DNA of 60,755 nucleotides, counting the filler, from Hausera hauseri (Eukaryota), in the NCBI GenBank assembly GCA_046269625.1. It is 12 parts of 12 records of this genome, joined end to end, with 100 filler letters (N's around TTAATTAATTAA, not from the genome) between each part and the next. Parts side by side here need not be neighbours in the genome. Positions count along the whole stretch, not along the records: positions 14,442 to 24,713 come from JBJURY010212188.1; 11 more parts are not named here. One strand, given 5' to 3'. Positions 6,002 through 32,299 of the stretch are shown here, piece by piece; the stretch's first letter is position 1; each line of letters starts with the position of its first letter. The translations under genes and the position numbers were made by a program. The notes beneath the pieces were generated by a model. It made no database searches and had not been told where the DNA came from. It saw only the letters and a program-made list of their open reading frames with translations.

Positions 6002-6003
6002 AC

Positions 6004-9000
6004 ACGGGTTTTATCAAAAATCCAAAGATAGCGGCCAGTTGACGCGGCAGCATTAAAAAGAAAAGTCCGAAAATATGTCATTGATGCAACTGACCAAACA
6101 ACCATCAAGGAGTTCCTGGAGTACGCAGAGGAAGATACAGAGAGAATTCTCAGAGGCAACATAGCTGAGCTTAAGACCCTTAAGGTGAATATGAAACTGG
6201 AGGCCACATACATCAATGTTGATGGCGTGGAATCCAATAGAGACTTCAAGACCAAAAATAGGCCAATATTGGAGACGCACGAGAAGCTGATCCGTGTAGC
6301 CAATGAGAGCCAGGATAAGAAGAGTGGATGGACTCTGCCAACCATCAAGAGATTGCCTGTGTATGTTCACAAGTACTCTGCCATGCAGGCCAGCTCCTAT
6401 ATACAGCTTCCGGAATGGATCGCTAATAAAAATGCATGCATTAATGTCCTTAATGGTGACAACAAATGTTTCATATGTGCCGTTTTATGTAAACTCGTAC
6501 GGGATCAAAAACATGCAGCAGGTAGAGTTTGTCTATATAATGATCTGCAGCACAACTATGGCTTCTAATGTATTAAGTTTCCTCCATCCTTTGACGAAAT
6601 TAATAAGTTTAGTCGAGTCAACAATATATCCATTAACATCATCTGATTGGATGATGAGAACAACTTCTATCCCCTGCAGATATGCGATACTAAATTGGAA
6701 GATCATAGGGATCTGCGCCTAATAGACGATGGAGAAAAGAAACATGTTTGGATAAAAAACTTTGAGCATCTAGTCAGATCTCAAATTACCAAACGCACAA
6801 CAAGAATCGAAATATGCAAACGATGCTTTTTCCATTTCAGAGGCGATGAGGCCGTGGACAAGCTTGAAGAGCACAAAATGTACTGCAGCAACAATTACTG
6901 TATCAGGACAGATTTTCCCAAAGATTACTACATTGAATTCAAAGAGTTCGAGAAGAATATCAAGGTCCCAATAGTTATCTATTGCGACTTTAAAGCTATT
7001 CTGTGTCCAGTTCAGAGTTGCAGTCCTAATTCCCAACACAGCAGCACAACGGCATTCCAATATCATGAACTCTCATCATATTGTATGTATGCCAAAGGAT
7101 TGAACAGTGAACTATATCTATTCAGAGGTTCAGGCGCAGCAGCACATTTCATAAAACGACTTGAAGATATGGCTCATAAGCTTGAGCGATATGTTGCAGC
7201 AGCATAAGCATATAATGAGCATGTCGAAAAAGCAAGAAGAAGAATGGCGCAAGGCAACAACATGTTACTTGTGCTCCAAATCATTCACTAAAAAGAATCA
7301 TAAAGTCAAGGATCATTGACATTTTACAGGCAAATATCGAGGCGCAGTATGCAACAACTGCAATCTGCGGTGAAACATATGTACGTATGTGCCTGTAGTG
7401 TTCCATAATCTCAGTGGCTATGACTCCCATTTTATTGTTCGGGAACTGGGAAACATTGAGGGAAACATTGATGGATCCCTAATAGTGAGGAAAAATCAAA
7501 AATCAGGCTTCACTTCATAGACAGTTTACGTTTCATGTCGTCTTCACTTGACAGTTTAGTGAAGAACCTCCTTGCAGAAGAACTCAAGGAGACGAAGCGA
7601 TTCTTACCCACTGCTTTTGACATCGTCAAGAAAAAAGTCGTGTTTCCCTATAACTACATAACCTCATGGTAAACACTGGATGAGATCTCATTGCCGGCCA
7701 ATAAGGACTTTTACAATATTATCTCTGATTGCGACATCAGTGATGCCGACTACCAGCATGCCTAGAACGTCTGACAAGCATTCCAATGTCGAACGTTAGC
7801 GGAATACAGCGACATATACCTCAAGAGGGACGTGCTGCTGCTGACGGATGTCTTTGAGAGCTTCAGGGATGTTATAGTGAAAATATATGCTTTGGATTTG
7901 GCTCATTTCTTTACGGCTCCAGTATGAGTTTGGCAACAAGTCTGCGCTATACTGGTATTAAGCTGCACATCATAAAGGATTACGACATGATCCTCATGAT
8001 TGAGAGAGGCATTAGAGGCGGAATATGCCAGGACATTTACCGGTATAGCGGAGACAACAACAAGTATATGGCCCAGTATAATCCATCCAGAGAATCCTCA
8101 TATATATCATACCTGGATGCCAACAACTTGTATGGATGGGCAATGAGCAACCCATTGCAATATGATAACTTCAAATGGGTCCAGAATCCTGAAAACATGC
8201 CTATATTTGACATAGATCCCACTGGAGATACGGGATACATACTGGCGTTAGATATGGAATATCCGGCTTAAATTCACACAAGGCATCAACAGCTGCCTTT
8301 GCTCCTTGAGAGCAGGCCTCCGCCCCGTGGAAAGCACAGAAAGCTCCTCTGTCATCTGAGTAATAAGGAGAGGTATTTACTTCACTATATCAATCTCCAG
8401 CAGGCCGTTAGACATGAACTTCGCATTACTATGATCCAGAGAGCCCTGCAGTTCAACCAGTCCATGTGGCTGCAGTCATACATAGATCTCAATACGAAGC
8501 TGCGGATTAATGCCAAGAACGACTTTGAGAAAGATCAATTCAAATGATATAATAACAGCGTTTTTGACAAGACCATGGAGACTATCCTCAACAGTATCAA
8601 CATTGAGCTAGTATGTAACTGGAAACGAGCATAGATGCTCATTGCCAAGCCTAACTTCCATAGCAGCACTATATATACTGAGAACGTGGTCATCATCCAT
8701 GTGCTGAAAACAGCATTGGTATTCAACCGGCCATATATGTGGGTATGGCAATATTGGATCTATCAAAGATCTTGATATACAGATTCCATTATGACATCAT
8801 CATCCCCATGTTTAAGTCTATGCAGCTGATGTATATGGATACTCATAGTTTCATCTATCAGATCCATACACATGATATTTATCAGGACTTTTTCCAATTG
8901 GCCAAACATAAGGATACCTCGGACTATCCGAAGGAATATCCCACCTATTCAATTGCCAAATAATGAAGTTCTTAGTAAATTCAAAGACGAGATGAATGGA

Positions 9001-9140
9001 GCAATCATCTCGCGATTTGTAGCTCTTAGGTCCAAAATGTATGCAATTCATGTATGTGATCAGATCAAAAAGAGAGCCAATGGCGTTCAAAAGGCTACAC
9101 TGGTCAAAAAGATCCGTTTTCAGGATATAGTATAAAGCCA
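6004..9140 (+). pseudogene. Maverick/adintovirus protein-primed DNA polymerase B (vOTU-like + EndoVII/HNH insert + exo + pol), many stops/frameshifts
   Basis: Motifs in order: SGWTL...SSYIQLPEWIANKNACINVLNGDNKCF; IVIYCDFKAIL; VKDH*HFTGKYRGAVCNNCNL; VVFHNLSGYDSHFI; FIDSLRFMSSSLDSLVKNL; GIRGGI; YLDANNLYGWAMS; KNDFEKDQFK; YMDTHSF; FVALRSKMY. Confidence 0.92.
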
Positions 9141-9229
9141 AGTAAAACTAAGTAACTACTATATATGTTAAGGCCAACTAATATCATAACACATTTATTT
9201 AGTAACAATATAACTTTTATATAACGCTA

Positions 9230-9700
9230 AACACTTTTAGTGTGTGTGCGCTTGTCTGTGCTTGTAAAATGTAAGTAACATGATAAAAGGTATATCATAT
9301 ATATATGTCAGTATGCTTGTACATGTAAAATGTAAGTAACTTGAGAAATGAATGATTAAAATATATGGTGTGTGCTTGTGTGCATGTCTGTGCATGTAAA
9401 GTGCAACTAACATGAAAAAAGGTATATCTCAAGTATATGTCAGTGTGTGTGTGCTTGTGTGCATGTGCATGTATGTGTATGTAACGTGCAACTAACCTGA
9501 GAAAGGGTATATCTCAGATATATGTTAGTGTGTTTGCCTGTGAGTGTTTTTCTGAGCTTGTAAAATGTAAGTGACCTGAGAAAATGTAGAGCTCAGATAT
9601 ATGTATGTGCATGTATGTAAAATGCAACTAACTTGGGAAAATGTATAGCTCAGTTATATGTCTGTATGCTTGTGCATGTGTGTAAAATACAAGTAATATT
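9230..9700. repeat. degenerate tandem repeat, ~55-90 bp units
   Basis: Recurrent gtgcatg...gtaaaatg(t/c)aa(g/c)taac(t/c)tgagaaa.ggtatatctcagatatatgt, about 6-7 copies. Confidence 0.75.
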
Positions 9701-9709
9701 TAGCTAATA

Positions 9710-9809: not shown

Positions 9810-10205
9810 AATCGATGATGGCCTATTCGATTTCCACGCCGAACTTATTAACCGATGATTCAAACATATTCTTTTCATCAAAAAAGAATCTACTTCAAGC
9901 TACGAATACAAACGATATGACTGCAAGGATAAATCCCAAAGGTTCTCATTGAGAAATAAGAAAAACTCTGATCCACTGCAAAATGACGGAGGATTGATTC
10001 AGGAAAAAGAAGCAAAGTAGCTGATGAGAGAAAACGAAGATAAACACGTTCCGTATCTCCTTCGCCGATGGGTTCCAGCGACGAATTGATACCAGCTTGC
10101 TGCAGAAACCACAAATTAGTCGGAAAAAAGTGTCAACAGCAACCGTAATGCTATTTGAGTTTCCGCAATTTGACGAAAGAAATTTCACACTTATCAATAT
10201 TTCAG

Positions 10206-10490
10206 TGGTGCGAATAACAGAAGATTGATTAGAAAGCGTTCTGAACACAATGAAGGGGAAATATTCTCCTTGGAAGAATTATCATTACATAAAGACATTG
10301 GAAAAATTGAATATATTGATAAATGGTGCCGAGAGCTGAAAATTCTCTATTTACAGAATAATCTAATTAGCAAAATAGAAAATGTTGACCGATTATCGAA
10401 ATTGGAGAATATCGATTTAGCGCTGAATAATGTTGAAATTATTGAAAATTTGGAACTGTGAATCATTGAAAAAATAAACCTGTTATTTTA
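10206..10490 (+). pseudogene. LRRC6: LRRC6/DNAAF11 (TilB) N-terminal LRR fragment, frameshifted
   Basis: VRITED(fs)[53 protein letters not shown]...[13 protein letters not shown](fs)CESLKK closely follows the conserved LRRC6 N-terminus ITEDLIRR.AEHN...[39 protein letters not shown]. Confidence 0.85.
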
Positions 10491-14441: not shown

Positions 14442-16365
14442 CCGGCTTTATTGACGGTTGTATATTCTACTGTATCAGTCGGTTCATCCGTACATCCCAA
14501 CATATATCGTTCTGCTCTGGGAAGTACTTGTTCTTCGTGAGTTTCGACGTAAGGGTAATATTCTTCTTCTTTAATGTTCGATAGCCATTTCTCGTCACCA
14601 TATATTTCGAGATCGTAGTCCAAGTTGGTCAGGGAAATTTCGAATTGTCTGGTGTAATTGAGTGTTGGTTCATGACGGAATAAGTTTTTTCTTCCATGTT
14701 TACGCTTGTATATACATATAGCAACAATCACTGTTACAACAAGTATAATACTAGTGGGTAATACAATTACTATTAGCAAGAGTTTATTGTAACTCGATTG
14801 TAGTCCCTGTAATGGCTCAACCAATGGTACCATGGTTTTTAATGTTTCATTGTTCTTAGGATAGTCTGTGGATATTTTAAAAAGAAATCTTCCTCTCTTC
14901 ATTATTTCATTAAGTGTAGGGAATTTGAATAGTGAATTTACTCCTTTTCTGAGAGTTGTGACTTCAAACAAAGCAACTGTTTTTAATCTTCGTATTGGGT
15001 CATAATAAGTTAACTGAATGTGGGCTAGATAAGGATGACCTGATATTAATTGGGCACACTCAACATGTGTGCTAGTAATCAAAAAACAGGCGCCATTTGT
15101 ATTTTCCAATGTGACGATAAAGTCAGGATCTGGCAAACTGAATATTACACGATCCGATCTTACTTGTACATAAATGTCCAATGGCTTAAAAGAAATAAAT
15201 TGAATGCGTTCGGGGGCTTGCCTTATTCCTGCTATTATGTATGGAATTTGATTATGAACCGAATAATGAAAACTACTTAACCAAAAGGTATTTGGACAAG
15301 ATTATTGTAGTTGGAGCGTGAGAAGTATCTGTCGATTATCCTCTTTCGTACACGATATTGGAGGTCGGGAGCTTGTGACCTCTACGTTATAAAGCTCGTC
15401 AGTATATTGTTTCGCAGCACATGAAAGAGCATAACTAACTCTACTGATTTGTGGTGCTACCACTAGGATTCCCTTATCGTTGAATATCTTTGCTCCAATT
15501 CGTTTATTATCTTCACTTGAAGGTGCACACGGTATTATTGGTGCTTTTCTTTCTCTTCCTGTTACCGTACGTCGCCATATACCATTTACGAGGCGAAACA
15601 TAGTGAATATTAATAAATATTCTTGGTCAGGTCATGTATATATGCAAGTCGATTGATTATGTTCTCGGAAATAGTAAACACTATTTTGCCCAAAAGTTGT
15701 ATCGGCATATCGTGTGGTTATTTGCATTACTCTACCTTTTGGGATTTTTCTATCCCATTCAATTGGTAAGCATGGCTTTTTATAATCGGGTTGGCCTATA
15801 AACACTCTTTCTTCTAAGAATGATCTGTCGATTTTGGTTAACTCTTTCTGTTCAGGTGAATTGTCCATTAAAGATAACATAACTGTTTTTGGTTTCAATG
15901 GTATCATTATTTTGAATGTTCGATCTTCATAGAGGGGTGAATTCTTATCCTCTGATATATGAATCTGTACCGAATAAATAGTCCCAGGCATAACCTTACA
16001 ACAATTTTCCCCATATGAGGACGTAGTCGTACATAACATTTTTTCTTTTCTATACAATGTTAACGTTCCCCAATTTTCGTTTAATGTTTTATTACTATTT
16101 ATCCCAATTCGTGGATTGAATAATCTCAGGGATAAGCAATTTCTTGTGTGATTATATTGAATATACAGATATCCTGGAGTGATACCTTGCGCATCCCATG
16201 GTTCTATTTTTGGAATTCTCTTCAAGTATTTCACGAAATCCGAAAATGTATTCAACGATGCTTGAGTGATTACATTTGTTGTCTTCACTGAACTTACTGT
16301 TGGCTGTGTAAATGAATCTAGTATACAACAGACCAATATTCCCATTGGTAATAATATTCGGTGGG
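14442..16365 (-). other. receptor-like module 2 (paralog of module 1) with Tyr-rich cytoplasmic tail
   Basis: LCTTTSSYGENCCKVMPGTIYSVQI; NRQILLTLQLQ*SCPNTFW vs DRQILLTLQLPSPCPNIFW in module 1; TM LLLIVIVLPTSIILVVTVIVAICIY-KRKHGRK; tail with VEYTTV. Confidence 0.55.
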
Positions 16366-16419
16366 ATATTAAATCGTGTTTAATCCGTGATGATTGGGTC
16401 TGGACAGGTCTTTTGGTTT

Positions 16420-17720
16420 TTCGGTGTCTTTTGACGTATAATAATACTACCCATATTAATATAGAAATGAGAACAATAATGGGTACGACAATTATTAGTA
16501 GCAGATATTTATCGTCTTGTTTCGTCGTCTTAATAGATGTTTGGTTCTGCACTATTATCTTATTCTCGTCTGGTACTATTTGCCGTTCCATGTGGGTATC
16601 GGATCGTTTACCGGGTGTAATCATATGACACAGTGCTATCGGTTTTTGTTGGTATATTATTTGTATAATATAAAGACATTGAGGTTTGAGACTGTCACAA
16701 CTAATAGATGTATCCTTAAATAGTGAACATTTAACTGTATCATCATCAAATGATACCATATAATTGTTATTGGGGAAGTTAAATATGGCATTTCTGTCAT
16801 TTACTTGATAAGAAATATTCAACGGTGTAAATCAAATCGTTTGAATATGTTCGGGAAGTTGTAGACCATCGTAGGATGCATGTAATGGTAAGTTGAATGT
16901 ATCAAAATAAGTGGTTCTAATCCAGAATATATTTGGGCATGGAGATGGTAATTGTAATGTCAGCAATATTTGTCGGTCACTACCTGGTACACAAATTTCC
17001 GAAGGTTCCATACTGGAATATTCTATACTATAATTTCTATCATTTGTTAGTTTCGCTGTACATGTTATAGTGTAAGTGACGTTTTCTATTCTGGGTAGAA
17101 TTCTCATAATTCCTTTAGAGTTATCGACATCGGCGTTTATTGGTCGATCAAATTCAGGTGTCAAACGACATTTTTTACCATTGTCTTTAATGGGGTAAAC
17201 TGTTCTGACTTTTGTCCTGATTGGATCAATAGTGGTCGTTTCTATGGGTATTTCAACAAAAACAGTCCGTCGCATAGTAATATTGTAACCGAACTCATTT
17301 GATCGTATAATAATCTGTAATAACAGGAAAGTTAAAGAGTAAGTGTATCCTTGAATGACTGGGCAACACTTATTATCCTTTAATTCTGAATAAGCAACAC
17401 AAATAGGTTTATTCTTTTTAAACAGTGTTATAACTTCTCTTTCTTGTCCATTTAATTTGTGTACATAGGTAATCATCAAGCACTTTCTCTTAGGATTATA
17501 ATAGATTGAAAAAACCTTGAATGTGAATTGTCGACCGTTGTTCAGATCTAAGCTCGTATTTTCTGGTAGTTTCAAATAATCTTGATACGTAATGTGTAAA
17601 TTCCGCCTTTGATCAGGGGTGAAAATCGGAGTTTAATTCAGTTGGGGTGGTAAAATTAATTGTGCCAAAATATTAGTCATGCATAATGCTATTATACATG
17701 AAAATAACGTCATTTTTCCA
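16420..17720 (-). other. receptor-like module 1: signal peptide + Cys-containing FN3-like repeats + TM
   Basis: Signal-like MTLFSCIIALCMTNILA; ICVAYSELKDNKCCPVIQGYTYSLTF; SCDSLKPQCLYIIQI (FN3-like LxPxxxY); TM YLLLIIVVPIIVLISILIWVVLLYV followed by KRHRKTKR. Confidence 0.55.
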
Positions 17721-20700
17721 ATTGGTGATTGTATACTCTGATATTGCTGACCTGACGAGTAATTATCGACATCCTGTTGATTAACCGGTTCACGGGTGTT
17801 TTTGCTCAAGATTGGTTCTGTGCTTACTATAGAATTTATATTCTGGCTGTTGTCAACGGATTGGACGTCTACCTTAAGATTTGAGCCATTCGGTTCATTG
17901 TGATTTACATCGGTGGTAGAATTTTCTTCTTCTTCCAATACTGGTTCTAGGTTAACTTTATTTTTTATGGTAGGTTTTGGAAGGAGTTCAAGTAATTTGT
18001 CAATGTTCTCTTCCATTCTATTCCAAGCCTTTTTGTCTCTGGTAGGTCCTCTGAATTTCTTTTTCTTTCTTAAGTACTGCTTTATATTAATCATGTGCAT
18101 CACCATTTCTATCATGAACCATTGACAAGGTAACTTAGTCGATATTGCTGATCTTTGGGGTATTTTAGCCAAATACTTTATTAGATATGTCTCTTCTCCT
18201 GGTAATAAATCCATTTGGGTTAATCCTAGATAAGCCATTACTCTGTTAATCCATCGGGTTTCAAGGGCTATCTTACTGTCTATTCCGTATTTTTGAGCAA
18301 GTATATCTATTCTTTCGTCATGTAATTGTACTGAACGATAATAAATTTCCAGTATGCTGGCTTGTGTTGGATTAATTGTTTCTTTATCGGTTATTTCTAT
18401 TTCCTTAGGTTGATTTTTATTTCTGTTAAAACTATGGAAAAGAATCTTTATCATGTATTGACGAACTTCTTCTGTATCCACATCAGGTGTTAGCAAAAGG
18501 TTATTGATATGAAAATATTCCACCACTCGTTGTAACACACTCTGTTGGTAATATTCGTTATCATTATAAAAGGAGTTAATATATTGACTTTTAATCCATG
18601 CTACCACACTATGAGATATGTTGAGGTGTTCTGTTCCTAATTCCCATAACACTTGGTACACCCATCTATCCATTTCTGGAGTTGGTTCGGATAGGGTTTT
18701 TAGGCCATTGTTTAAAAGTTTAGCACAAATAAGTCTGCTGTGAGTTATCTTACTTGCTGGCGTCAAAGTATCTAATAATTTAATCTTACAGCATCTTAGA
18801 TTTGACGTATTAGGATTTTCTTCGGTGATGATTCCTCGGTTGACCAAAATATCTGAGTAGTTATCGAAACATCTTCTCATCATGTCATAATACTCGAAAT
18901 CATAGAGGTAATTCAATATCGCTTGTTTTTCTCCAGTAATTTCAACATCCTCTTCTTCTGTGTTATGAATGAACAATCTTTGCCATTCTCTTTTTATAGT
19001 TTGTTCCTTTTCCAATTCTTTAACATTAGTATAATATACATTCCAGACAGGGTCGTATGTCTTACTGATTTTCTTTTGAACTTTTTCTAGCCTTGTCTGT
19101 TGTTCGGATCTAGTTCCTTCTGTTGGTTGATTAAATCCTTTATTAAAATCCTTGATTATAGTTTGGATCATTCGTTTATATCTGGAATACCTTGAATAGC
19201 CTTGGAACTCTAACTTAGTGTTGTTAAACGCTTTAATACACAAATACATTTGTGTATACTGTTTTATAGTAGGCTTATGTATTTTTATCTGATGTAATAG
19301 ACGAGTCGTCCATATTTTATTTTTATATTCTCCTTTATCATAACCGTATTTTTGTGCTGATGCTAAGATTTTCCTATCATAATACTCGCGTATTCGTAAT
19401 CTATAGGTGGCTTCAGGGTATTGTCTTCTTTCATAAATCTCCTTTTCCATTTGTAAATGTGGTGTATCGCTATTTATTCTCATTCGTGTATTATAAAGAT
19501 ATCTTCTTTGTGCTCTTAACCATTCTCTATCAAGATGTACTATTCCTAGCGCTAACCTGTCTATAAGATGTTCATTATGCAATATTTCTACTTCATGCCG
19601 AAGTTCTTCCAATATTTGTAAAATTGATTTTACTAATATCTTGTAATACTCTGTTCTTTCCATAATGTCAGTGACTGCTTCGATTAATTCTGTCATGAGG
19701 GGTTCATCTTCTAGTCCGGCTTCCCATAATAACCAATCTATCCATATATGTCTCTTATATTCCTCAGTATTGTTTCTGATGTTTTGAATTTTATGCGTCC
19801 ATAATCCATTAATTATATGGTCGTTACCACAGTCTTTCATCGATTCTCTAAGGATTTCCTTATCATGAGTTGATATTTTTAATCGTTTAGGTCTGCGTAG
19901 TGCTATATTAAGCAATTGATATAAGGATATGTCCCAAGTGACAAAGGATGTAAAAACTCCTGCATGTAGATTAAGAGGGTTTGTTTTCAAATATTGTTGG
20001 GCCTCTAGTGCTATTGTTTCTAAAGCATAGGCATCCCCTTGTTGAAAATATTGCTTTCCAGGATTATAAATATGCAATTTCAAATATTGATATTCAGGAG
20101 ATTGTCGTTTATCTGGAGACCTATTGATCTCCCACAAGAATATTCGTGTCCAAGTTTGCCTATAGGTTACTTCCATGTCTGATTCTTCTATCATTTCTTT
20201 GATTGATTCGATTTCATTATTTTCTGTTTTCAAACTCTTCGAATATTGTTGACGGAGAGAATGTACTATTTCATGTAGATTTTGTTTTGGGTATTGTTGT
20301 CTTAATTTAACTACTTCACTTTCTGCATTCATGTCCAATTTTCGTAATTTGTTAAGCATTTGTAATAGATGTGTCGCTTCATTAACTTCGATTGATCGTT
20401 CTACTTCATTTTTCTTGTATGCTTTGTATCTTTTTATTATCGCTGTTATATTTCGGTAGGATGAATTGTCCCAAGTATTTCCTTTAGTTATTTCGTTATT
20501 TCTTATTGTATCACATGATTTTAATAGTAGAAATTTGTCTTCTGCTGATACTTCCTCATACGTTTTCCCAAATTCTATTAAAATAGTATCAATTATTGAT
20601 TTAAATATATTATTTTCTGATATAATGTACCGTTCTATGGCTATTCTATTAAGTTCCCTCTGTATTTCTTCGTTATCCATCCAAGGTATATCTTCCAATT

Positions 20701-22555
20701 CTGCCCTTGGCCATGTGTGACTTTTTGTCGTCTCCTTTGTAGGATTATTTGCTGATTCTTGCAGTAAACGCTGTATATAAGGATCCTTTGACCATGGGTT
20801 TTCAGTTATCTCTATTTCGGATATCATGTAACTTAATACTATTTTCGGGGCTAGTATGTCTGAAATTTCACCTAAGAATCTTTCTCTATTAGCCTGTCTC
20901 TTCTTTTCCCATTGCCTTTTTGCAAATTGAATTAGTTCGGTTAGTTGTTCGATTGCGTAGATTGCCAATATATATGATAGAAATTTCACATACTTCGCAT
21001 AGTCTAGTTTATTTGTATTGATAGGTTGTGCAGCACAACCATTTATTAAACAGCATGTTACTAAGGTTGATAAAAGTATTGGATTGGGTCTAACATAACT
21101 TCCTTCATTTTCTTCGTAATCAGGAGGTGGTAGTTGTTTGATGGTCTTTTTATAATGTTTTATTACTCGGCAAAATCTATAGAGCGCTACCACTATTAAC
21201 GCAACTATCGTGCTACTAGCTAAACCTATTAGAAACATTAGTAGTAAAAATGATTTATAATCTATGACTGGTAAGGCCGGAATAACTGCATAATCAATTT
21301 GACTTGCTTCAGTTGAGGTTACATTAAATGCTGAGAAGACTATAGGTATTGCTAATCGTTTATAAACGTATGATGTTTTGCCAGAGACGTCATCGTACTT
21401 TGGAGGTGGTTCCTCTTTTGCTGCTTCTACATCTAATGTTAAATGTTCTTTCCTTTTCATTTCTTTTTGTATTTTATACGATCTCTTAATCAATATGGCA
21501 ATGTAACTAGTTAATGCTAAAACGAATATTATTAGTAGCATTAGTGACATCACTTCCATAGTTTGACTATATATATATATCTCCTTATTACAAGTTTTGG
21601 CCTTAGACATAGGTATCAAGCTATTCTCAATCATGTATCCACTAGTCGTTGGTAGTATAACTCGTCCGGTAGAATTAAATCGTTTATATCGATTAATCCT
21701 CTTATTGAAGAATATTATCGCTCCTATTATAAGGCTAATTAGAAGTGTCAATATTACTGAAGAAATTGTATATTCCAATATGGAAATCGGAGGGATTGTT
21801 GACTTACTGACTTGCGTTGTAGTGTTGGTAATCAATTCTGCATTGGCTTTTTTAATTAGGAAGGATGGCATAAGCATTGTCGCTGCTAAAGTAAAAGGTT
21901 TAGTTTTGAATTTCACCCAATTATTAATTTTTTCTCGACCAGTTGGCTTTCTTTGTGATATTATCCTTTCCCTTTCTAACTTAAACCTTTTTGCTTTCTC
22001 GTTCGGCATAGGTAGTGAGCAAAATATTAGGCGGTATCGAATGGCATTTATTCGACCAGTTAATCCTTCGGCATTTACATCGCACATTGAATATATATCT
22101 TGATAATCTTGTTTTGATAGTTCTTGGTTTAAATTTCGTTCTAAGTATTTATTCCATAAGATCTTGATCTCCTTTTCCTCTATTATTTGTAGCGCTTCAT
22201 CATCTAACTTATCCTTCGACTCCATTATTGAATAAGCCGTAATGCAATGTGTATATACATTTCCTTTACATTGCTTTGTTAGTTCTAATCCGAACCATTC
22301 GTATAAGGTTAAGTTATAATTAATTATACTGCACATTTCAAAATCGTTTACATAATCGTTTATGCCTGGTAATTCATCCTCTATCTGTTTCTTACCATGC
22401 TTGACTGGTAAGGGTGCTCTATCTCCTCGTAGAAATCTCGTTAAAAATTTTCTTTCGGCTTCACTTCCTACGAATAAAGGTTGGAAATCCTCATTGGATC
22501 CGATTACAAGTGTTTCATTATCATTGAAACTATGCCTTATATTTATTAAGTCCAC
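17633..22555 (-). CDS. largest intact segment (1640 aa) of the polyprotein: alternating signal-like/TM segments, two PPxY motifs, helical Trp repeats
   Basis: Uninterrupted 4.9-kb ORF in AT-rich DNA; TM stretches ISSVILTLLISLIIGAIIFF, VMSLMLLIIFVLALTSYIAILI, FLLLMFLIGLASSTIVALIVVALY; PPPKY and PPPDY. Confidence 0.8.
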   Translation of the reverse strand: MDLINIRHSFNDNETLVIGSNEDFQPLFVGSEAERKFLTRFLRGDRAPLPVKHGKKQIEDELPGINDYVNDFEMCSIINYNLTLYEWFGLELTKQCKGNVYTHCITAYSIMESKDKLDDEALQIIEEKEIKILWNKYLERNLNQELSKQDYQDIYSMCDVNAEGLTGRINAIRYRLIFCSLPMPNEKAKRFKLERERIISQRKPTGREKINNWVKFKTKPFTLAATMLMPSFLIKKANAELITNTTTQVSKSTIPPISILEYTISSVILTLLISLIIGAIIFFNKRINRYKRFNSTGRVILPTTSGYMIENSLIPMSKAKTCNKEIYIYSQTMEVMSLMLLIIFVLALTSYIAILIKRSYKIQKEMKRKEHLTLDVEAAKEEPPPKYDDVSGKTSYVYKRLAIPIVFSAFNVTSTEASQIDYAVIPALPVIDYKSFLLLMFLIGLASSTIVALIVVALYRFCRVIKHYKKTIKQLPPPDYEENEGSYVRPNPILLSTLVTCCLINGCAAQPINTNKLDYAKYVKFLSYILAIYAIEQLTELIQFAKRQWEKKRQANRERFLGEISDILAPKIVLSYMISEIEITENPWSKDPYIQRLLQESANNPTKETTKSHTWPRAELEDIPWMDNEEIQRELNRIAIERYIISENNIFKSIIDTILIEFGKTYEEVSAEDKFLLLKSCDTIRNNEITKGNTWDNSSYRNITAIIKRYKAYKKNEVERSIEVNEATHLLQMLNKLRKLDMNAESEVVKLRQQYPKQNLHEIVHSLRQQYSKSLKTENNEIESIKEMIEESDMEVTYRQTWTRIFLWEINRSPDKRQSPEYQYLKLHIYNPGKQYFQQGDAYALETIALEAQQYLKTNPLNLHAGVFTSFVTWDISLYQLLNIALRRPKRLKISTHDKEILRESMKDCGNDHIINGLWTHKIQNIRNNTEEYKRHIWIDWLLWEAGLEDEPLMTELIEAVTDIMERTEYYKILVKSILQILEELRHEVEILHNEHLIDRLALGIVHLDREWLRAQRRYLYNTRMRINSDTPHLQMEKEIYERRQYPEATYRLRIREYYDRKILASAQKYGYDKGEYKNKIWTTRLLHQIKIHKPTIKQYTQMYLCIKAFNNTKLEFQGYSRYSRYKRMIQTIIKDFNKGFNQPTEGTRSEQQTRLEKVQKKISKTYDPVWNVYYTNVKELEKEQTIKREWQRLFIHNTEEEDVEITGEKQAILNYLYDFEYYDMMRRCFDNYSDILVNRGIITEENPNTSNLRCCKIKLLDTLTPASKITHSRLICAKLLNNGLKTLSEPTPEMDRWVYQVLWELGTEHLNISHSVVAWIKSQYINSFYNDNEYYQQSVLQRVVEYFHINNLLLTPDVDTEEVRQYMIKILFHSFNRNKNQPKEIEITDKETINPTQASILEIYYRSVQLHDERIDILAQKYGIDSKIALETRWINRVMAYLGLTQMDLLPGEETYLIKYLAKIPQRSAISTKLPCQWFMIEMVMHMINIKQYLRKKKKFRGPTRDKKAWNRMEENIDKLLELLPKPTIKNKVNLEPVLEEEENSTTDVNHNEPNGSNLKVDVQSVDNSQNINSIVSTEPILSKNTREPVNQQDVDNYSSGQQYQSIQSPIGKMTLFSCIIALCMTNILAQLILPPQLN

Positions 22556-24713
22556 AGATCATATCTTCTCTATTAATTGTGGTATGGTTAATAGTTGTAG
22601 CTCGTGCATGATTATTAATTTATGTATCGGATTCTTTAAGCAAACTGATCGTATTCCGCACCTGTAATTCCAGGCTTTAATCAATTCATGCATGGGGTTA
22701 TACCATGAGAGTTTTATTCCTGATACATTCATAATTTCATCAAATATTCTTAAGCCAGAACTATAAATCATTCTTTCGTTCTCGTACTTTTCTCTAAAAG
22801 ACTTACCTTCAATTATTGCTTCCTTAGCTAGCTGACATCGAAAGCTAGTGATTAGCAATAGATTATCTTTCATTGGATGAATATTGGGGTTGTAATTCGA
22901 TTCTTTTTGATATTGTTCAAAATATTTCTTATACATGTCAATGTAAAATGATATGAGTTCTTTTCTTAGATGGACAGACAAACTCCATAGATAATTTGCG
23001 TATTGAATACTTTGGTGAATATCCCAGCCGTTTTTTTGACGAGAAGTTATCTCGTTTTGATACATTTCTAGTTTACCATTTCTGTTCGGATTGAGTCGTT
23101 TAATACTTTCTTTCTATTCCAACTGCATTACATGTTTGTCTATGGTCATTAATCATAATTCTTTTATCTGGGGCTTGATCAAGCGTAGTTACAGGGTTTC
23201 TATTATTCAAAGGTAAGTGAGTTACTCGATTAGCGACGGTATATAATTCGTATTCCTCCGTTGATAATTCGTGTCGTTTTCTGCGAAGCTTATTTATATG
23301 ACGAAATATTGGAACGACTTCGTTAACAGTCAAATATGGGTGATCTGTCACTGATTCTACCCCTTGGGCGATTAATGCTACGATTATTTGTGTCTCTTCC
23401 GAGAGTACATCAAAAGGAGAATAAATTTCTTCTTTTATATAATTGATTATGTCTTCATTTTGAGTTATTAACTGTAAATAGTGTTGATTAAGTTTCAGAT
23501 ATTTAGCATAAATAGCCAAGTTTAACTGAACTGACATATTTAGATCCAACCACCCCTCATCTTGTTCAAATCCTCTAACGAAAACTTGTCGTTCTCTTTA
23601 TCTTCTTGTATTCTTTTACGTTCATAACTCTCTATTTGCCGAGATAACGGTAGGTGTGTATATATGGTAGAGCTTTGAGATTTATTCACTTCTAATTGTT
23701 TAATGCAGTACTTATCTTTGTGATCAATATTTTCATGCTCGAGTGACAAGGATTTATTTGTCGCTATCTCCTTTAATTGTGCCGTAGTTTGACGTTTTAT
23801 TAATTTTGTTTTGATAGTTGGGACTTCTTCTAATACAGTATGTCCTTCAATCGGAGTAGTATCCTCATCGCTAGTTGATTGTTTAGTTGTTCTCATATGG
23901 AACATTAGATTAATCAATATTATCAGTATTCACCAAGTCAACGAACTTTCTGGTATATTTTTTGATATCGTTGGAGCGGCTTCTGCTGTTCCAAACAATA
24001 TAAATGGAATGATGAGTAATATTAATATTGGGTAAGTTAATCCGATACCAATTGTATTGAACTGGTTACTATTAATTGATATCTGTTCATATATTTCTTT
24101 TTCTTCATTAATATTCGAAATGCTTTCCTCAGTAGGTTCAGTTTTATTCATGTCGGTATTAATACCACTAATTACCTGATTGTTAGGGTTATTACTTCTA
24201 ACTGCCGACCAGAAAGCGTCATTCTCCTCCTTGAAACGTTTATCCGTGTATTCCTCCATCTTGGATAATTTTTTATTATAGTGTAACCCTAAGATTTGCT
24301 TGTCAAAAGCATTTGATTCTCGGAGACTCCTTATCCTAACCGCTGTTGTTTCTTTATTATTACCCATCCTTTGTCTGCAAGTGCTTATTATTCTTTTTCT
24401 TTCTTCTTTAAATGGTCTAGCTATTTCATTATTATCAGGTAGTTCGCAAAATATTATATGATACCGTACGGCATTTAATTTACCAGAAAATTCACTTGCA
24501 CTTACAGTATCAAATTTATGTATATCCATATAATCCTCTGGGGTTAATATGATGTTCTCATCTCGTTCTATATAATCATTCCATACTATCCGTGCTTCGC
24601 CTTCCTCAAATAGTTTAATATCTTCTCGAATAAGATCATCCTTTATAGCCATAAGTGTGTAAATCATCCAGCAGTTAATCGCATAAGTTTTAAACTGGGA
24701 ATTAATATTTAAC

Positions 24714-24813: not shown

Positions 24814-26330
24814 ACGCTTTTACAGAATCAGAAATCAAAAATAAGCGAGAGTTTGTACAGAAATGGCAGAGGGACGTAATTATTGAACTAAGCGATTATC
24901 ATCAGAAACGATTCATCAATTATATCGAATTAGGCGATTTACTGAAAATTATTCAGTATGCCTGTGGAAACGGAATAGGGTTTCGAACTACCCAGATAAA
25001 AGAAATACAACCAAAATTGAAAGAAATTCGAGAAAACGTACAAAGAACGAACACAGCCCTAGTAGACTACGGACTTCCAGATATTGGGAATGAACCAGAA
25101 TGGAATGCTTATTTAGAAACAATAACAGCCGAAAATCGCATATCTCCGGTATATCTAAATGAAATAGAAATGTACCTGCAGAACAGGAAATTTAACGTGG
25201 AGATGCTCCTGAACTCAGCGTTAACCGAAAATGATTTGATTGAATTAATTAATGTAAATGTTACTGAAAATAAGCTCAGACAACGCATTTTGACTTTGAC
25301 TAAATTATGCAGCGAAAACATAATTTACAACACCTTGCCGAAACTTTTAATAAAGAAGTATGCGAAAATTTGGAAAGATAAACCTGAGATAACGATGAAA
25401 ATAAGGATATCATCTGAATAGATGAATGAAAAATAATGTGAGTAACCACTCATTCCTACATAAAGGACGTAATAAAATGGTTATTATATAATGGCGGAAC
25501 AAATGAGCTAAATTATAGATTTTACTTTAGAGGGAGAATACTCGACGATTTAGAAAAGTTAATAAATTTCGGAATTATCCCCGATGAAACAAACCGGATA
25601 GTAGTAATAATATCCAATGAACAGACGAAAGAAGAAGCCACGCGAAAAGCTAAAACGGAACAATATGTAGGGCAAATCATGAAAGTACGAGATGCCGCAA
25701 TGTATTTCGAGTATTTACAGATAGATGAAGACAAGGAACAATATGACAAGAATCTAGTGCCATTAAGTAGAATGTTGACCAATGTCCCGAGACGAAACGT
25801 CCAGTCGGTAGACCGAGGAAAGCCAGAGAAGAAGTTGACTATAATGGAAAATTGATTAAGGATTTGAGGCAAATGTCGATTTCTACCCTTAACGCAGACA
25901 ATGAGGAGTTAAACGAGTTAGTGAAAAATTTAATACGTATCGTAAATTATTCAAGTCTTCGCGGAGATACATTAGACGAGAAAGAAAAAGCGATATTTAA
26001 CGCAGCTAGGACAGTGAGAAGTTTGCGTTTTAAGCTGTCAAAAAGTAGCTTAACTGACGACGCAGTAGTTGAGAAAATTATGGTGGAGAATATGACAGAA
26101 GAGCTAAGAAAAGTATTATTGTACTTGGCGATCAAGACAAGTCCAAATCGAGAGGATGAACTAAATTGAGCTACAAGCTTGGCACGAAAAGAAGCTAGAA
26201 AACTTCCGTGTAAAGTAAATTGACCAAAATTATTCGACAAGAAAGAAGACAAAAAGAATAGTAGTAACGGACTCGGAGATATTATACGGAATTTAACGAC
26301 AACAGAAAATAACAACAGAAAGAATGAATC
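24814..26330 (+). pseudogene. degraded helical polyprotein region upstream of the glycoprotein
   Basis: Frame open from the contig start (KREFVQKWQRDVIIEL...PEWNAYLETI); contains motifs resembling those of the 14442-24713 polyprotein. Confidence 0.5.
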
Positions 26331-26339
26331 AAATTGGTT

Positions 26340-28681
26340 AATCAGCTTACAACCATAATGATGCTAATGAAACAGATGGGTGCTGTTACTGTCTACGATT
26401 GCGATAGATGTAAGCTTGGACAAAAATATTCACTAATGGATTTCGAAGCATGCGAAGATGCCAGACCACACAAATTGGAAACAAAGGGGAAGAGTTATTT
26501 CCTATATTAACAACAAGAGTTAATGTCCTTGGATAGCATGGAATGTATGCTAAGACAATCTCGTAGTATTTTCCACTGTAGATTAATGCATGGACATTCC
26601 TCAATAATTAAACCAACAATCCCTCCAATTCCAATGAATTTGGAAAGACAACATTGCAAGCAAGCCCGAGAAACCGGAAGACTAAAATGGGACAGTATAA
26701 AACTAGAAATGCAGCCCGGAAAGATAATCTTAGCATACAAGATAATAGTTGGAAGGCTCGATATGAATAACGGACACTGCAGCGGAGAGGAATACGACAC
26801 CGGAAAAGGATTAGAAGCGAACTTAGTAGTAGGGGACTTTTATGAATCAGAAATGCGAGTACAGAAAGTGATTTTCCATAGCCTTACTAAGCTATATACC
26901 GAGAATCAAAAATGTCACATACAAGACGAAACCTGTACTTTCAGAAGCTCTATCGTCATATGAGAACCGCTCGTTGAAAAGGCTGTAATTTTATTAAGAT
27001 TAAGGAATTGAAGTTTAATAAAACTACTGTGACACGATACTTAGACAAATCCGATATCAGTTCAAGAACACCTACGATATTAATCTCTGATCAGCATGGA
27101 TTGAAATTCATAAAGAAAAGGAATGATTTCACGTTGTGAAGTAGTAATGTTCACCACTAACTATGTAGCCTTTGTCGTCGCAGAAACGGAGGTAAACGCG
27201 AAAACATATAACTTAGATACTCAAAACGTTCGAATCGAATATTACCTAAAAAACCGAGATGATTATTTCTATTATAAAGGGCAAGTCGGAATATCCGAAT
27301 TATACCATAAAATGATAACTAATGATTGCAAATTGGATACGGAAATTATGAGGACAAAATTAGCTCTTATTTATGCGAACCCTAAGTTAGACTCATCGAT
27401 TATTCCAATGAGAGAAGGAATCTTCGGCCGAGTTACTGTCGAGATTCTACCGACATGAGTGCGAGAAGAGATGTACCAATTAATGTCGCAGAAAAACGAT
27501 GTATACAAGAACTCCCCGTGATCTATCAAAACACTCCACGCCTAGCCATGCCCCTCACCAGGGTGTTGCTAAACAACGCAACATAACCTACAATCTTAAA
27601 GAATTGTAAAATAAGTTTGGGTGAACGAAACGGATTGGGTTAGCTTAACTAATGTAGGTGTCACTATCATTCATAAAAAACTAACTGGAACTAATTTAAC
27701 AAAAGGAATTACTGATGACAAGTTTCAGAATACATCTCAAAAAGGTATTTATAGGCTTAAAGAAATCGACGCTTTTCGGCAATTTCTCGCTTTTCCACGG
27801 CAGCCAACACACGAACTAAACCGAGCTATGGCATCAGTAGTAGACGATACCCGTTATCAGGCCAAATGGGAATCCCTGCTTGGTGCAAACCATTACCAAC
27901 GGGTAGCCACGGAAATACTCTACAAAATATGGGGAAAGTTTTTAATCTTTGGACAAGCTGCATCTGGATTTTTAGCAATCGATTTCTTGGTACAACTAGT
28001 AAAAGCGGTAATCCAAGCGGTTATAAACGGGTACGAAATATCACGCTAACAGGATTTTCCTGCAAGATCTTAATCGCAATTATCACGCCTTTCGGCAAAA
28101 TGCTTAAAGCATATGAAAAAAATCGATGGAAAAATGAAGTTGAACACCATGTCGGCTACCATAATTATAAACGACGAGCAAGATCCACAGTTCTATTGAA
28201 ACGCAAAGCTAAGAAATCAATGACACGAAGAGATAACTCCGATGATGACGAGCCTAAGGGAGGAGAAGCAATCCTCAGACAAAATAGACACAGAATGTAT
28301 TCAGTGATTAAGGCACAGTTACCCATCATGCAACCGACAGCTCCAATATATGAAGAGTGCGACAGAACATCTATTGTATCATACAAATCGGAAACTCATC
28401 GCAAACCCTTCAGCTATGAAGACCCTTATAAGGGAACAAAACAATATGGAGTATTAAAGAAAATGAAAATCACTAATCAGAGACGAGCGGAAGATGACCA
28501 TAAAATATTATACTCACCAAGAATAGCTCGTAATATAGAGTCAAGATCGACAGTTTGGGGAATACAAGGAATGAAAACGCCCCAAAATCCATTAGCACCA
28601 GAACCATTAATTAGAAACAATGCAAATAGCATAGCGATTAATGACTTATATCTTAACGAAGAACTGAAACAGTTGATCTAA
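26340..28681 (+). pseudogene. chuvirus-like (Jingchuvirales-type, class III/gB-like) envelope glycoprotein with long cytoplasmic tail
   Basis: Signal-like LTTIMMLMKQMGA then VTVYDC...YSLMDFEAC; CMLRQSRSIFHC..HGHSS...QHCKQARETG; IVGRLDMNNGHCSG; ELYHKMITNDCKLDTEIMRTKLALIYANP...GIFGRVTVEIL; GIYRLKEIDAFRQFLAFP; KIWGKFLIFGQAASGFLAI...INGYEI(fs)TGFSCKILIAI. Motif order follows chuviral G consensus as I recall it. Confidence 0.8.
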
Positions 28682-28750
28682 AATATCATTTAATCACCAG
28701 AAATAACGATAAACGAACATAAGATTTCTTCAGTTAAGCGACCAAAGGAC

Positions 28751-29554
28751 GTGTCAAGTTGTTATGGAACAGTTATGGAAGGGAGACCCTTCACAAAAGT
28801 TACCATTGAAGATAGGGAAGTCTATGCCTTAATCGACACTGGATCAGAGAAATCGTTTATCAAATTAGAATCAATACCGCCGATACTACGGAAACAATTG
28901 CAGCCAGCATCGTCGTCAGATCCAGGTAGCATAGGAGCTTTCGGGCAGGAATCCAAACCGAAATTTAAGTGGAGTCCCTTAGTTCAGTTAATGTATCAAA
29001 TTCTTCGACACGCGTTTGCCGTAATGGATCAGCTAACCGATGATGTAGCATTAGGTTGCGATATACTGAAACAATTACCTAATATCGCAATAAATTTATA
29101 TACTGGAAAACTACTGGAACTTGAACCAGTGAAAGGTATTAAAACAATAAAAGAAAGGAAACTAGGAGAGGTATGGATTCCCGTCGACGAAAATATTCCG
29201 CCCAGAACCGAAATGTTAATTTGTGCTCAAATCCGTGAAGAGGACGACCAACCAGTATACTTTGAACCACAAGACGTTAATCGAAATATCATACTTAGTA
29301 ACGTTTTGACAAGAGCAATGACAGGAAGGGTACCAGTCAGATTAGTGAATAATGCACCGACTTACGTACAATTATATGCCAATACCACCTTGGGTCATAC
29401 TTATAAGGTATCGGCAATAATAATCGAAGAAAAAACAAATATGCTGAATTTCCACCTCATGTTGAAACTAAGTTTTCAGCAGAAGCATATTGCCAATTTT
29501 ACGAATTATTATGCAAATATAAGTCGATTATTGCTCAAAATGAAGAAAATATAG
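28751..29554 (+). CDS. Ty3/gypsy aspartic protease plus degenerate dUTPase-like spacer (fragment of pol)
   Basis: VYALIDTGSEKSFI ... DVALGCDIL; then IPPRTEMLI...VPVRLVN...LYANTTLG. Confidence 0.85.
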   Translation: MSSCYGTVMEGRPFTKVTIEDREVYALIDTGSEKSFIKLESIPPILRKQLQPASSSDPGSIGAFGQESKPKFKWSPLVQLMYQILRHAFAVMDQLTDDVALGCDILKQLPNIAINLYTGKLLELEPVKGIKTIKERKLGEVWIPVDENIPPRTEMLICAQIREEDDQPVYFEPQDVNRNIILSNVLTRAMTGRVPVRLVNNAPTYVQLYANTTLGHTYKVSAIIIEEKTNMLNFHLMLKLSFQQKHIANFTNYYANISRLLLKMKKI

Positions 29555-29579
29555 GTAGAGCAAGAACATTAAAACTAAC

Positions 29580-30104
29580 CATTCCATTAAAAAAGAAACC
29601 TGGCTCCAACGACGAAATTGATCTGGAAGAGCAAAAGATGCCAAAATGGTACCCACCGCCTCATTCATTAAGGTCCTAAATAACTAAAGAAGTAAAACGT
29701 ATGTTGAAGGTTGACATAATACGACCAAGCTACCTATTTTCGTATTCACCAATACTCATGGTCAAGAAAAAGTGTACCACCAAACATCGATTCTGTATAG
29801 ATTACAGAGCCCTAAACACGCTTATGATGAAGGACTCATTCCCACTACCGTCAGTAAAGGAAACATTAGACAGATTATCAGGAACAAAATGGTTTACCAC
29901 ACTAGACTTACAATCAGGATATTGGCAAGTAGAAATTGAAGACGATCGTTATAAAACAGCAATTAAGACGCACGACGAAGTTTACGAATTTAACGTCATG
30001 CCGTTCGGTATAACAACCGGCCCAGCCATCTTCACCAGAATGATGAATAAGATGTTAATGGGACTAGATCACGCGTTCGCCTATTTAGACGATGTAATGA
30101 TAGC
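29580..30104 (+). mobile_element. Ty3/gypsy reverse transcriptase (truncated by contig end)
   Basis: HRFCIDYRALN..MKDSFPLP..ETLDRLSGTKWFTTLDLQSGYWQV...YEFNVMPFGITTGPAIFTRMM...AFAYLDDVMI (YLDD). Confidence 0.95.
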
Positions 30105-30204: not shown

Positions 30205-31149
30205 AACTTTTTCCTCTTTTTGACCGACTTTCACACTTTTCCCAAACATGCGAACCAAATGCTTCCTACATTATTCGAACGCCCATACTCTACTCTACAT
30301 TTTCTCTTATCCATCCCTAATCAAATTTTGCTACTGGAAAAAGTTCGTTTTTTTCTTTTGCATTGCCCGGCTTTCTCTTTTGCGACACAGGAAATCTCAC
30401 CGCACAACTGAACTCGCCGTTGTCGAAATGACAAAAGAGCATGCGAGCCGCTTGTGATTGGTCAATTGGTGCGTGGGTGGACCCCACCTCTAAATATTAC
30501 CCGCATATTACGTATTACATATATATTATATTACTGCTTTTTACTAATTGCGAAAAAATGTAAGTACAATTTCGATTTTCTTTCATATTATTGTATATTT
30601 CAAGAACTTTTCGGTAAATATACCTATTACTTTCGATAAAGAATGTATCTTTGTTTAAATTACTTACTAGTGTACATAATCAAAAAATTGTACGTTTTAA
30701 CAATTTTAATAAAAATTTATGATCCCATTTAATTTAACAATATATTGTACAATTTTGTTAACAGAGCGAATTGGAAATTACAAAATTCGTCTTATTTTTT
30801 GATGTTTTGGGAAACGGTCCTTAGTCGGTTAGCTAATATTCATTAAATAAAACATCATAATTTGTGTGGTTTCCAATCGGGGTATAACTTATGCCAATAG
30901 TACCAACCATAAAAAATTGACATCCAGAACTTAGAAATTTCCTATTAAGAGTAAATATAATTTGCATATTTGAATTCACCATTACCGTCCTATACAGAAT
31001 TTCATCAAAATCTGCGTTGTCGTATTTTTCGTATTGGCTTGATGAAATGGTTGAAAATATTGAAAATATATTTGAAAATGATACTGAAAATGTGAAAACT
31101 TAGAATTTCTATCGTTGGTTTCCACCGGTATCAGTGCAACAACAGTTCT

Positions 31150-32260
31150 GGGTCTTTCAATATTGGAAAATTGAAGCAATTGAACTATTTTGTTAAATTG
31201 AAGGATCTTCTAACAGAGATAGAAAATCTTAATTCACTCGAACTAATATCATTTGACATGTCTGGTTCGGAAAAGTTGACAATGCAATTACCTGCATCGG
31301 TTAAAAGGAATTCCTGCGTCAAAAAAAAGAAAAGAGATTTCAGTATTGACAAAAGTGAACAATTTAAGCTTTCTACTTGTGATTTGTCTTATGATGATCC
31401 TTTAGTGGCGGGTATAGTCCATATGTTCGGCCTTATCGTTTTTTTCAAAAATGGTGGAGACGTTATACGCTGCTCGGCGAAGGCCGGAATGGATATGTTT
31501 GGTTTAGCTGAAAAAAGAATAGGAATGCAATGAGAATGCACTCTAATGGATTGTTTATTTTGCCTCATTTGGCATGCGTCCAGACGAATTCTATACCAGC
31601 TATACGGATAGAGTGTACAACATGAACGAATGTCATTTTTATTGAGATAACAATAATGTGGTTGTTTTATGGATGTAGAGATTGGGTCAAACCATATGCT
31701 GATTTCAAATTGAGAGGGTTATAGCTATGTGGTGTGGAAATTCGTGCACGGAGGTTGTTATTTGAGATTGATACTGGAAACCTCAATATTATCTTCAAGG
31801 AATTGAGCAATAAAAGGGTTACGCGAAAATACATCGGAAGTTTCTAATATGTTTATCTCTCGGTAAGTAGGAAGGTGAAAAATCATATTTGGCTCCCAAA
31901 GGATGGTATTGGTATTGTTTACTTGCAATGTTATATAGTACGTGTAAGTCCTAACGTAATTGACAGAGCAGCAAGTTCTAGTATGTTTTTCAAGGATAGT
32001 ACATACAGAGGAGAGATTATGTTGCTATATAAAGACAAAGTTAACCGTGTGGTGTCTCATTAGCTGTAGATGGGTTTAAAGGCACATACTGGGTTTATGC
32101 GTTTCTATACTGATAATCGTAGTTCGTGCAATCAATCCAGTTTGTAGGGTAGTCGTGGTGTTTCGATTAATGTCAGCGATCGTAATAGGTATTAAGAGCT
32201 CGAGGGAAAGGGGAATAAAAATACCCAAATATATATTAAAAGTGAAGTAAACAGGGCAAT
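31150..32260 (-). pseudogene. post-integrase ORF: signal-like segment + two C-x9-CC FN3-like domains
   Basis: Continues the integrase C-terminal frame: FTFNIYLGIFIPLSLELLIPITIA; HKPSMCL*; VCTILEKHTRTCCSVNYVRTYTYYITL; YCYLNKNDIRSCCTLYPYSWYRIRL; scattered stops. Confidence 0.55.
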
Positions 32261-32299
32261 GTTCTGAGCTTCTCTTCTGGTAAATTTTGCACAATGCCG

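Follow-up and report, generated by a model that had tools for sequence, protein, structure and literature searches.

Does a 10.3-kb stretch of DNA that stays open in one frame apart from isolated stop codons encode a single giant protein in decay or a row of separate genes, and to what kind of element does it belong? We addressed this question for contig JBJURY010212188.1 of Hausera hauseri (GenBank assembly GCA_046269625.1). It fills positions 14442-24713 of the window, by which we mean the whole analysed stretch of 60,755 nucleotides, made up of 12 unlinked contigs with N-spacers between them; the studied element is this one whole contig. The contig is a real dead copy of a selected giant polyprotein, probably from a giant long terminal repeat (LTR) element of a new variety.

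14442..24713, minus strand: whole contig, an internal part of a long reading frame of a high-copy repeat family; decayed copy

A single minus-strand frame of at least 3,423 codons runs through the contig and is left open at both ends, as a preliminary description of this DNA had stated. Its 3,423 codons contain 25 stops, compared with 326 and 321 for the two remaining frames of this strand and 154-264 for each plus-strand frame, which confirms the earlier view of one reading frame with isolated stops. Nineteen of the 25 stops are clustered between 23542 and 23116, where a second frame stays open (23597-23103), and the other six are single stops, namely TGA at 23932, 22561, 16834 and 15634 and TAA at 17635 and 15304. 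Outside the offset segment there are 6 stops in 3,256 codons versus about 252 expected from base composition, a scarcity far beyond chance. The frame requires no introns and has no intergenic sequence within it. Its product looks like a chain of cassettes, each with a signal-like segment and a membrane anchor, and includes two paralogous receptor-like units (1 and 2). The signal of unit 2 comes after the anchor of unit 1 with no intervening stop; because this anchor and this signal are connected in one stop-free open reading frame (ORF, 16831-15635), the polyprotein reading is independent of stop read-through. Several cassettes are also contained, uninterrupted, in ORF 22558-17636.

Relatives of the contig were present in two public runs, X1 and X2, which may not be independent. 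The shares of the contig's words found there were 0.38 and 0.16, respectively, and the former fits a distance of about 3% between this copy and its nearest X1 relatives (0.97 to the power 31), so X1 is unlikely to be the source. No RNA data set was among the runs listed as containing the contig, which has no bearing on its expression. At a likeness of at least 80%, 20,490 (X1) and 3,703 (X2) related contigs aligned, with depth in 30 of 30 bins over the whole 10.3 kb and, among the matches listed, up to 67 distinct contigs at single sites. Most related contigs were less than 95% alike, and the differences were chiefly transitions. Contig 14442-24713 is a high-copy repeat; summed depth does not equal its true copy count. 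The depth of related contigs falls several-fold at 16500-17871 (unit 1), 21302-21644 (a bin of small cassettes) and 24046-24388 (a linker), and these parts may evolve faster or be absent from some subfamilies.

Comparison with the other copies places the following lesions in this copy or in its frame.

23930..23932, minus strand: private stop codon; other copies differ within the codon
22559..22561, minus strand: private stop codon; other copies differ
23134..23596, minus strand: offset-frame segment between two cancelling frameshift lesions, marked by loose ends of other copies
23114..23116, minus strand: seventh in-frame stop (TAG), directly after the second shift; in-frame ATG at 23065

Direct copy comparison covers two of the seven stops. 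At 23932, other copies differ at a depth of 842.2 of 842.2 (17 contigs, X1) and 131.5 of 133.9 (10 contigs, X2), and at 22561 at a depth of 12,281 of 12,301 (47 contigs, X1) and 407.7 of 407.7 (28 contigs, X2). Conservation of the stops across copies, named earlier as the sign of separate genes, was thus not found at these two of the seven. The preliminary description had also pointed to stop-free paralogs; both the stop contexts that it quoted and the paralog are real, and in the alignment the stops at 16834 and 15304 lie opposite sense codons of this internal paralog. The stop at 17635 falls between a signal-like segment and the outer domain that belongs to it.

Where other copies leave loose ends, at 23596/23597 (7 + 2 contigs) and at 23133/23134 (1 + 4 contigs), these ends match the window out of register, as compared by eye at both shifts. 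An offset segment had been placed at 23549-23100 earlier; the segment itself stands, while other copies set its bounds at about 23596 and about 23133. The indel table was empty, and since none of the 16 longest pieces listed spans either shift, we read this as clipping by the aligner at the shifts. Both frameshifts occur in this copy alone. The ORF end at 23540, previously counted among the isolated stops, turned out to be a consequence of the first shift and no nonsense change. Of the 11 shared differences within this segment, 8 are at third positions of the offset frame, a bias that confirms it as the coding frame of the segment. As the segment ends at about 23133, the TAG at 23116 lies in the family's frame; the six TGA and TAA stops given earlier are thereby joined by a seventh that had gone unlisted. 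This TAG has no row among the 40 of 94 difference rows used below and, if common to other copies, would split the frame into two ORFs there. The contig is a dead copy that has gathered stops and two frameshifts, and such decay is in itself ordinary.

The family as a whole shows a different pattern from this copy. We compared codons in 40 of the 94 difference rows for 22500-23700, from which the stop-codon row was dropped to leave 25 shared and 14 private differences, shared meaning held by part of the family (less than 99% of depth). The rows were chosen by the tool and the contigs are not independent, hence the p-values are indicative. Among the shared differences, 18 of 25 are silent and 17 of 25 at third positions, versus about 0.30 expected under random change (p 2e-5); among the private ones, 4 of 14 are silent (Fisher p 0.017 versus shared). 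Over the whole contig, 14 of the 39 best-supported rows (of 2,111; stop row dropped) are silent, these rows being mostly private, and this share is near the 21-30% of neutral change. Because the shared differences are mostly silent and the private ones are not, selection has maintained a coding frame in the family, whereas this copy has died. Selection between active lineages together with neutral decay after insertion is the classic mobile-element pattern.

The anatomy of the frame was derived from hydropathy and internal alignment, and paralogy from tblastn and MAFFT. From N- to C-terminus, the features are:

24341..24712, minus strand: repeat domain copy 1, about 125 amino acids; tblastn E 1e-24 versus copy 2; no family match
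23885..24055, minus strand: small cassette 1, with a signal-like segment, about 12 residues and an anchor that contains stop 23932; from hydropathy alone
21890..22285, minus strand: repeat domain copy 2; 41% identity to copy 1
20939..21892, minus strand: four consecutive small cassettes, from hydropathy and charge; stretch free of stops
21395..21409, minus strand: PPxY motif in a predicted cytoplasmic tail
21116..21130, minus strand: second PPxY motif, in the predicted tail that follows
17730..20938, minus strand: charged region of about 1,070 residues without hydrophobic segments; predicted all-helical; no relative
16400..17725, minus strand: receptor-like unit 1, with signal-like segment, beta-rich outer part and anchor; contains stops 17635 and 16834
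14660..16378, minus strand: receptor-like unit 2 with an extra inserted module; contains stops 15634 and 15304
14442..14698, minus strand: acidic, tyrosine-rich predicted cytoplasmic stretch that extends past the contig end

The four consecutive small cassettes follow one plan (signal-like segment, outer part of 15-30 residues, anchor, basic tail); the second has a signal below the hydropathy threshold, and the anchor of the last is weak. About 530 residues between small cassette 1 and repeat domain copy 2 had no match. The whole frame contains two PPxY motifs versus 0.34 expected, a number reached in 51 of 1000 shuffles, and the two sites also form a weak DNA repeat (D2). For the charged region, the AlphaFold single-sequence model was all-alpha (predicted local distance difference test, pLDDT, 35). 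Units 1 and 2 share 29% identity over 433 aligned residues. The single-sequence model of unit 2 was poor (pLDDT 34.7); its top five Foldseek rows were all fibronectin type III (FN3) proteins, with weak E values of 3.7e-3 to 1.1e-2, and residues 82-176 weakly matched immunoglobulin (Ig)-like sandwiches at Z of at most 6.5 (root-mean-square deviation 2.5 over 64). The receptor-like units are thus weakly predicted to carry Ig/FN3-type domains, and the AlphaFold and Foldseek check suggested in the preliminary description yielded two models of pLDDT 35 and, for unit 2, weak FN3 rows only. The acidic stretch behind unit 2 (89 residues) consists of 10% Tyr and 20% Asp plus Glu. Three further candidate signatures were discarded: an FN3-like pattern (3 versus 0.24 expected) was circular, having been drawn by eye from the same sequence, ITIM-like motifs (immunoreceptor tyrosine-based inhibitory motifs; 12 found, 13.3 expected) were not in excess, and glycosylation sites were not enriched in the frame. 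Elsewhere in the window there was no paralog of the receptor-like units or of the repeat domain. Two beta-rich ORF fragments at 55308-55984 (plus strand) have no Pfam match and no significant likeness to the receptor-like units.

Searches for relatives were negative throughout. A phmmer search of 1.84 billion representatives gave 0 matches to residues 1-1200 of the longest ORF. Word-indexed searches found no longer relatives of the 1,641-amino-acid ORF and no shorter relatives of the two receptor-like units, near-length candidates lying outside both searches. No relative emerged from scans of viral contigs and metagenome contigs, 0 of 9 queries matched PHROGs, and PDB profiles gave nothing below E 0.2. 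Pfam returned solely hydrophobic-segment noise below the cut-off on the contig, and BFVD structure matches were diffuse (TM-score at most 0.14) and not meaningful. A motif scan of the frame found no protease, reverse transcriptase (RT), integrase, knuckle, Walker A or GDD motif, and one FxDD within an outer domain. There was no CCHC motif and no Pfam gag on the contig, whose frame begins beyond the contig end; no long DNA repeat was found inside the contig, the ends of which fall within the frame. Pfam and motif scans likewise found no RNA-dependent RNA polymerase (RdRp), helicase or 3CLpro/NiRAN/ExoN replicase array on the contig. With private stops and shifts, multi-cassette ORFs and no enzyme motif, the earlier description of one decaying polyprotein without a recognisable enzyme is borne out. 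The encoded part is predicted, from its sequence, to be membrane cargo and not replication enzymes.

Which element carries this cargo is less certain. On balance, we think that the contig comes from within the one giant frame of a mobile element of high copy number, for which a giant Ty3/Gypsy LTR retrotransposon of the Burro kind is the likeliest identity. In Burro, one giant frame has env between gag and the domains for protease, dUTPase, RT, RNase H and integrase (PMC6431247), and its ORFs of 4,873-5,140 amino acids occur in thousands of copies and include captured host-like cargo domains (PMC6431247). High copy number, a Burro trait, is present here (20,490 + 3,703 related contigs, 30 of 30 bins). 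The coding strand is 39.5% A, and the 3-mer profile of the contig is nearest to that of the env-protease-RT contig of the window (r 0.95), followed by its RNase H-integrase contig (0.92), with Polinton-type stretches at 0.45-0.73. The earlier attribution to a viral or retroelement polyprotein is thereby supported indirectly, by copy number, selection pattern and the A-rich coding strand, while a gag, pol, env or LTR that would support it directly was not found on the contig.

The two Gypsy contigs of the window deserve a description of their own. The first, 24814-30104 (plus strand), is a Ty3/Gypsy element in decay; its fusion glycoprotein, of Monjiviricetes type (PF24664), is in three pieces at 26511-28046. 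The fusion gene lies upstream of the protease (28694-29551) and RT (29680-30102) on the same strand, which is an env-before-pol order like that of Burro, and a stretch without assignment precedes the fusion gene (24816-26160). By eye, a dUTPase-like stretch presumably follows the protease. The second, 30205-34357 (minus strand), encodes a Gypsy RNase H, an integrase zinc finger and an rve core (34276-32816) and starts just past the RT motif that ends the first; both contigs may derive from adjacent stretches of a single element. Reports of a gag-env-pol order come only from flatworms, bryozoans and nematodes (PMC13524379).

A Burro-like element would work as follows. Its long RNA would be translated as one polyprotein, which internal signal sequences would thread to and fro across the membrane of the endoplasmic reticulum, and host signal peptidase would cut after each internal signal. 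Five small single-pass proteins would be released, two of them with PPxY tails and the last bearing the helical region of 1,000 residues. PPxY tails recruit NEDD4-type ubiquitin ligases, and those of the small proteins may engage such ligases. Two paralogous type I surface proteins with putative Ig/FN3-type domains would also be released and, at the host cell surface, would most plausibly serve adhesion or receptor mimicry that aids the spread or persistence of the element. Gag, env, pol and the LTRs would be located past the contig ends. After insertion, selection would have been lost, and stops and two frameshifts would have accumulated.

Several observations weigh against this assignment. 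No database searched yielded a relative of the frame, and Pfam, motif and repeat scans found no gag, env, protease, RT, RNase H, integrase or LTR on the contig. The 3-mer likeness is weak evidence, as a host leucine-rich repeat (LRR) stretch reaches 0.88, and the Gypsy contigs are separate scaffolds that nothing links to contig 14442-24713. The published Burro cargo (BIR, MATH, ankyrin, BCL2-like, SUMO-like) was unmatched by Pfam in the 10.3 kb, and since this piece already amounts to 3,423 codons in which pol is missing, the complete frame would exceed the 4,873-5,140 amino acids reported for Burro. Copy or paralog comparison covers four of the seven stops, with 23116, 17635 and 15634 outside it, and the codon tests rest on rows picked by the tool. 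Topology was read from hydropathy without a signal-peptide predictor, and the PPxY excess is borderline (p 0.05). The folds are of low confidence: pLDDT is 35, the best Foldseek E is 3.7e-3, the best VIA Z of 6.5 lies in the range of chance, and neither Pfam fn3 nor the FN3/Ig sequence profiles of PDB matched in the frame. In addition to these points, RING had no Pfam match and no CxxC motif within the 10.3 kb, and searches from the neighbouring env and protease found no full-length Burro-like protein, Burro being compared by description only.

Alternatively, the polyprotein could be cargo of an endogenous virus or of a different self-copying element, such as a member of another LTR lineage, a giant DNA or non-LTR element, or something of a class not yet described; we rate this as possible but doubtful. 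The direct evidence speaks for a selected polyprotein of a high-copy element and leaves the replication module unnamed, and the absence of any Burro hallmark domain or relative fits such an element as well. Against it, giant intronless single frames at high copy number in invertebrates are best known from Burro, and the composition is nearer to the Gypsy than to the Polinton-type stretches of the window. It is improbable that the frame is part of the polyprotein of a large RNA virus, either a nidovirus like the planarian secretory cell nidovirus (PSCNV) or a flavi-like virus with a large genome, that was endogenised and later amplified as a passenger. PSCNV does have a single giant ORF, in which cutting by signal peptidase has been proposed for a region of about 4,000 amino acids, as well as fibronectin type II domains (PMC6211748), and the cassettes of the contig have an anatomy of this kind. 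The contig, however, showed no RdRp, helicase or protease motif and no viral relative, and BFVD matches stayed at a TM-score of at most 0.14. Passenger copies are moreover expected to decay neutrally in all copies, a pattern at odds with the 18 silent among 25 shared differences.

The reading that separate genes of the element or of the host lie in an array, have one frame through common descent and end at real stops appears distinctly improbable. In-frame ATGs do follow some stops closely, 24 nucleotides after 23932, 30 nucleotides after 15634 and at 23065 after the TAG at 23116, and three stops (23116, 17635, 15634) are those outside copy or paralog comparison. But the stops at 23932 and 22561 are private to this copy, those at 16834 and 15304 correspond to sense codons in the paralog, and the one at 17635 would detach a signal-like segment from its own outer domain. 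There is also no in-frame ATG within 300 nucleotides after 15304, the ATG at 23537 is not common to other copies (99% differ), and intergenic sequence is lacking. Scarcely credible is an intact frame, by a variant genetic code or read-through, or a live copy with breaks due to assembly errors. Six of the seven stops are TGA or TAA, which would suit a variant code, yet in a frame this rich in AT a reassigned codon should occur often and in other copies too, whereas the compared stops are private and all three stop types occur along with two frameshifts. As for assembly errors, the private differences look neutral, and a distance of about 3% means too many differences for sequencing error. Kuafuorterviruses (Troyka) were set aside for their compact genome of 5-6 kb (PMC11673190), compared with 10.3 kb for the contig alone.

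The remaining contigs of the window contain pieces of other elements and genes. Polinton/Maverick-type DNA polymerase B pieces lie at 56632-60755 (plus strand; with an endonuclease VII domain, Pfam) and at 5666-9709 (plus strand; recognised by eye only), and fragments at 2475-2944 (minus strand), without a Pfam match, we take by eye to resemble a Polinton major capsid protein. A broken LRR gene (10174-10458, plus strand; Pfam LRR_4) presumably resembles LRRC6/DNAAF11, a motile-cilia gene; if it is this gene, it speaks against a nematode host. A trypsin-family gene at 53693-54569 (plus strand) is in two pieces, probably with one short intron between them, and has a predicted signal peptide; a gag-like ORF with one CCHC knuckle is located at 44009-44452 (minus strand). 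The Gypsy, Polinton-type, trypsin and LRR genes of these contigs point to an invertebrate animal with a repeat-rich assembly and no further, Burro hosts being planarians (Dugesiidae/Geoplanidae).

Giant polyprotein retroelements have been described mainly from planarians, and the pathways on which their known cargo acts are those of apoptosis and ubiquitin; Burro1 is said to aid stem-cell survival (PMC13465017). If the Burro-like reading is true, a membrane cargo of more than 10 kb under purifying selection would extend such cargo to the cell surface, would blur the line between retrotransposon and large virus, and would provide a set of orphan proteins whose many copies offer a built-in test of function by comparison with one another. 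If the flanks are not Gypsy, a large repeat class would have been missed wholly by annotation pipelines, since it has no Pfam match. It is possible, though doubtful, that the family is an undescribed giant provirus-like invertebrate element with a polyprotein of well over about 5,000 residues, more than 3,400 of them devoted to a signal-peptidase-processed array of surface proteins (Ig/FN3-type receptor mimics and small PPxY adaptors), which would manipulate host cell surfaces like large viruses while reaching very high copy number. In the literature searched, no retroelement polyprotein with such membrane cargo is described; the domain maps of Burro-2 to -4 were outside that search and could already show it.

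Among known systems, the Ty3/Gypsy errantiviruses of Platyhelminthes, Bryozoa and Nematoda with GAG-ENV-POL order and a gB-type env have a gene order that fits the neighbouring 24814-30104 (PMC13524379) and gives a hint of the host group. No multi-kilobase membrane-protein cargo is described for them in the excerpts of that source (PMC13524379), and contig 14442-24713 has no env match. PSCNV resembles the contig in its giant ORF with several hydrophobic segments, internal tandem repeats and captured extracellular modules (PMC6211748); for its C-terminal 4,000 residues, processing by signal peptidase has been proposed (PMC6211748). Unlike PSCNV, which is an RNA virus and carries replicase domains as well as fibronectin type II modules, the contig is a high-copy DNA repeat with no replicase and with weakly predicted type III/Ig-like modules. 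The small cassettes are like the sORF2/FAST-like proteins of MDG1-group LTR retrotransposons in having a short outer part (about 30 residues) and a single anchor that is followed by a basic patch (PMC11952523), features that are generic for single-pass proteins. Unlike sORF2 proteins, which are encoded by separate ORFs of 63-107 amino acids and are mostly N-myristoylated (PMC11952523), the cassettes are internal to long ORFs and come after signal-like segments. From Burro (GYPSM1), the planarian giant Ty3/Gypsy element, the contig differs in having no gag, env or pol and in its cargo, a predicted membrane-protein chain with Ig/FN3-type domains that takes up 3,423 codons alone. It shares with Burro a very long intronless polyprotein frame, a very high copy number, cargo beyond replication genes, and copies that decay by stops and frameshifts (PMC6431247).

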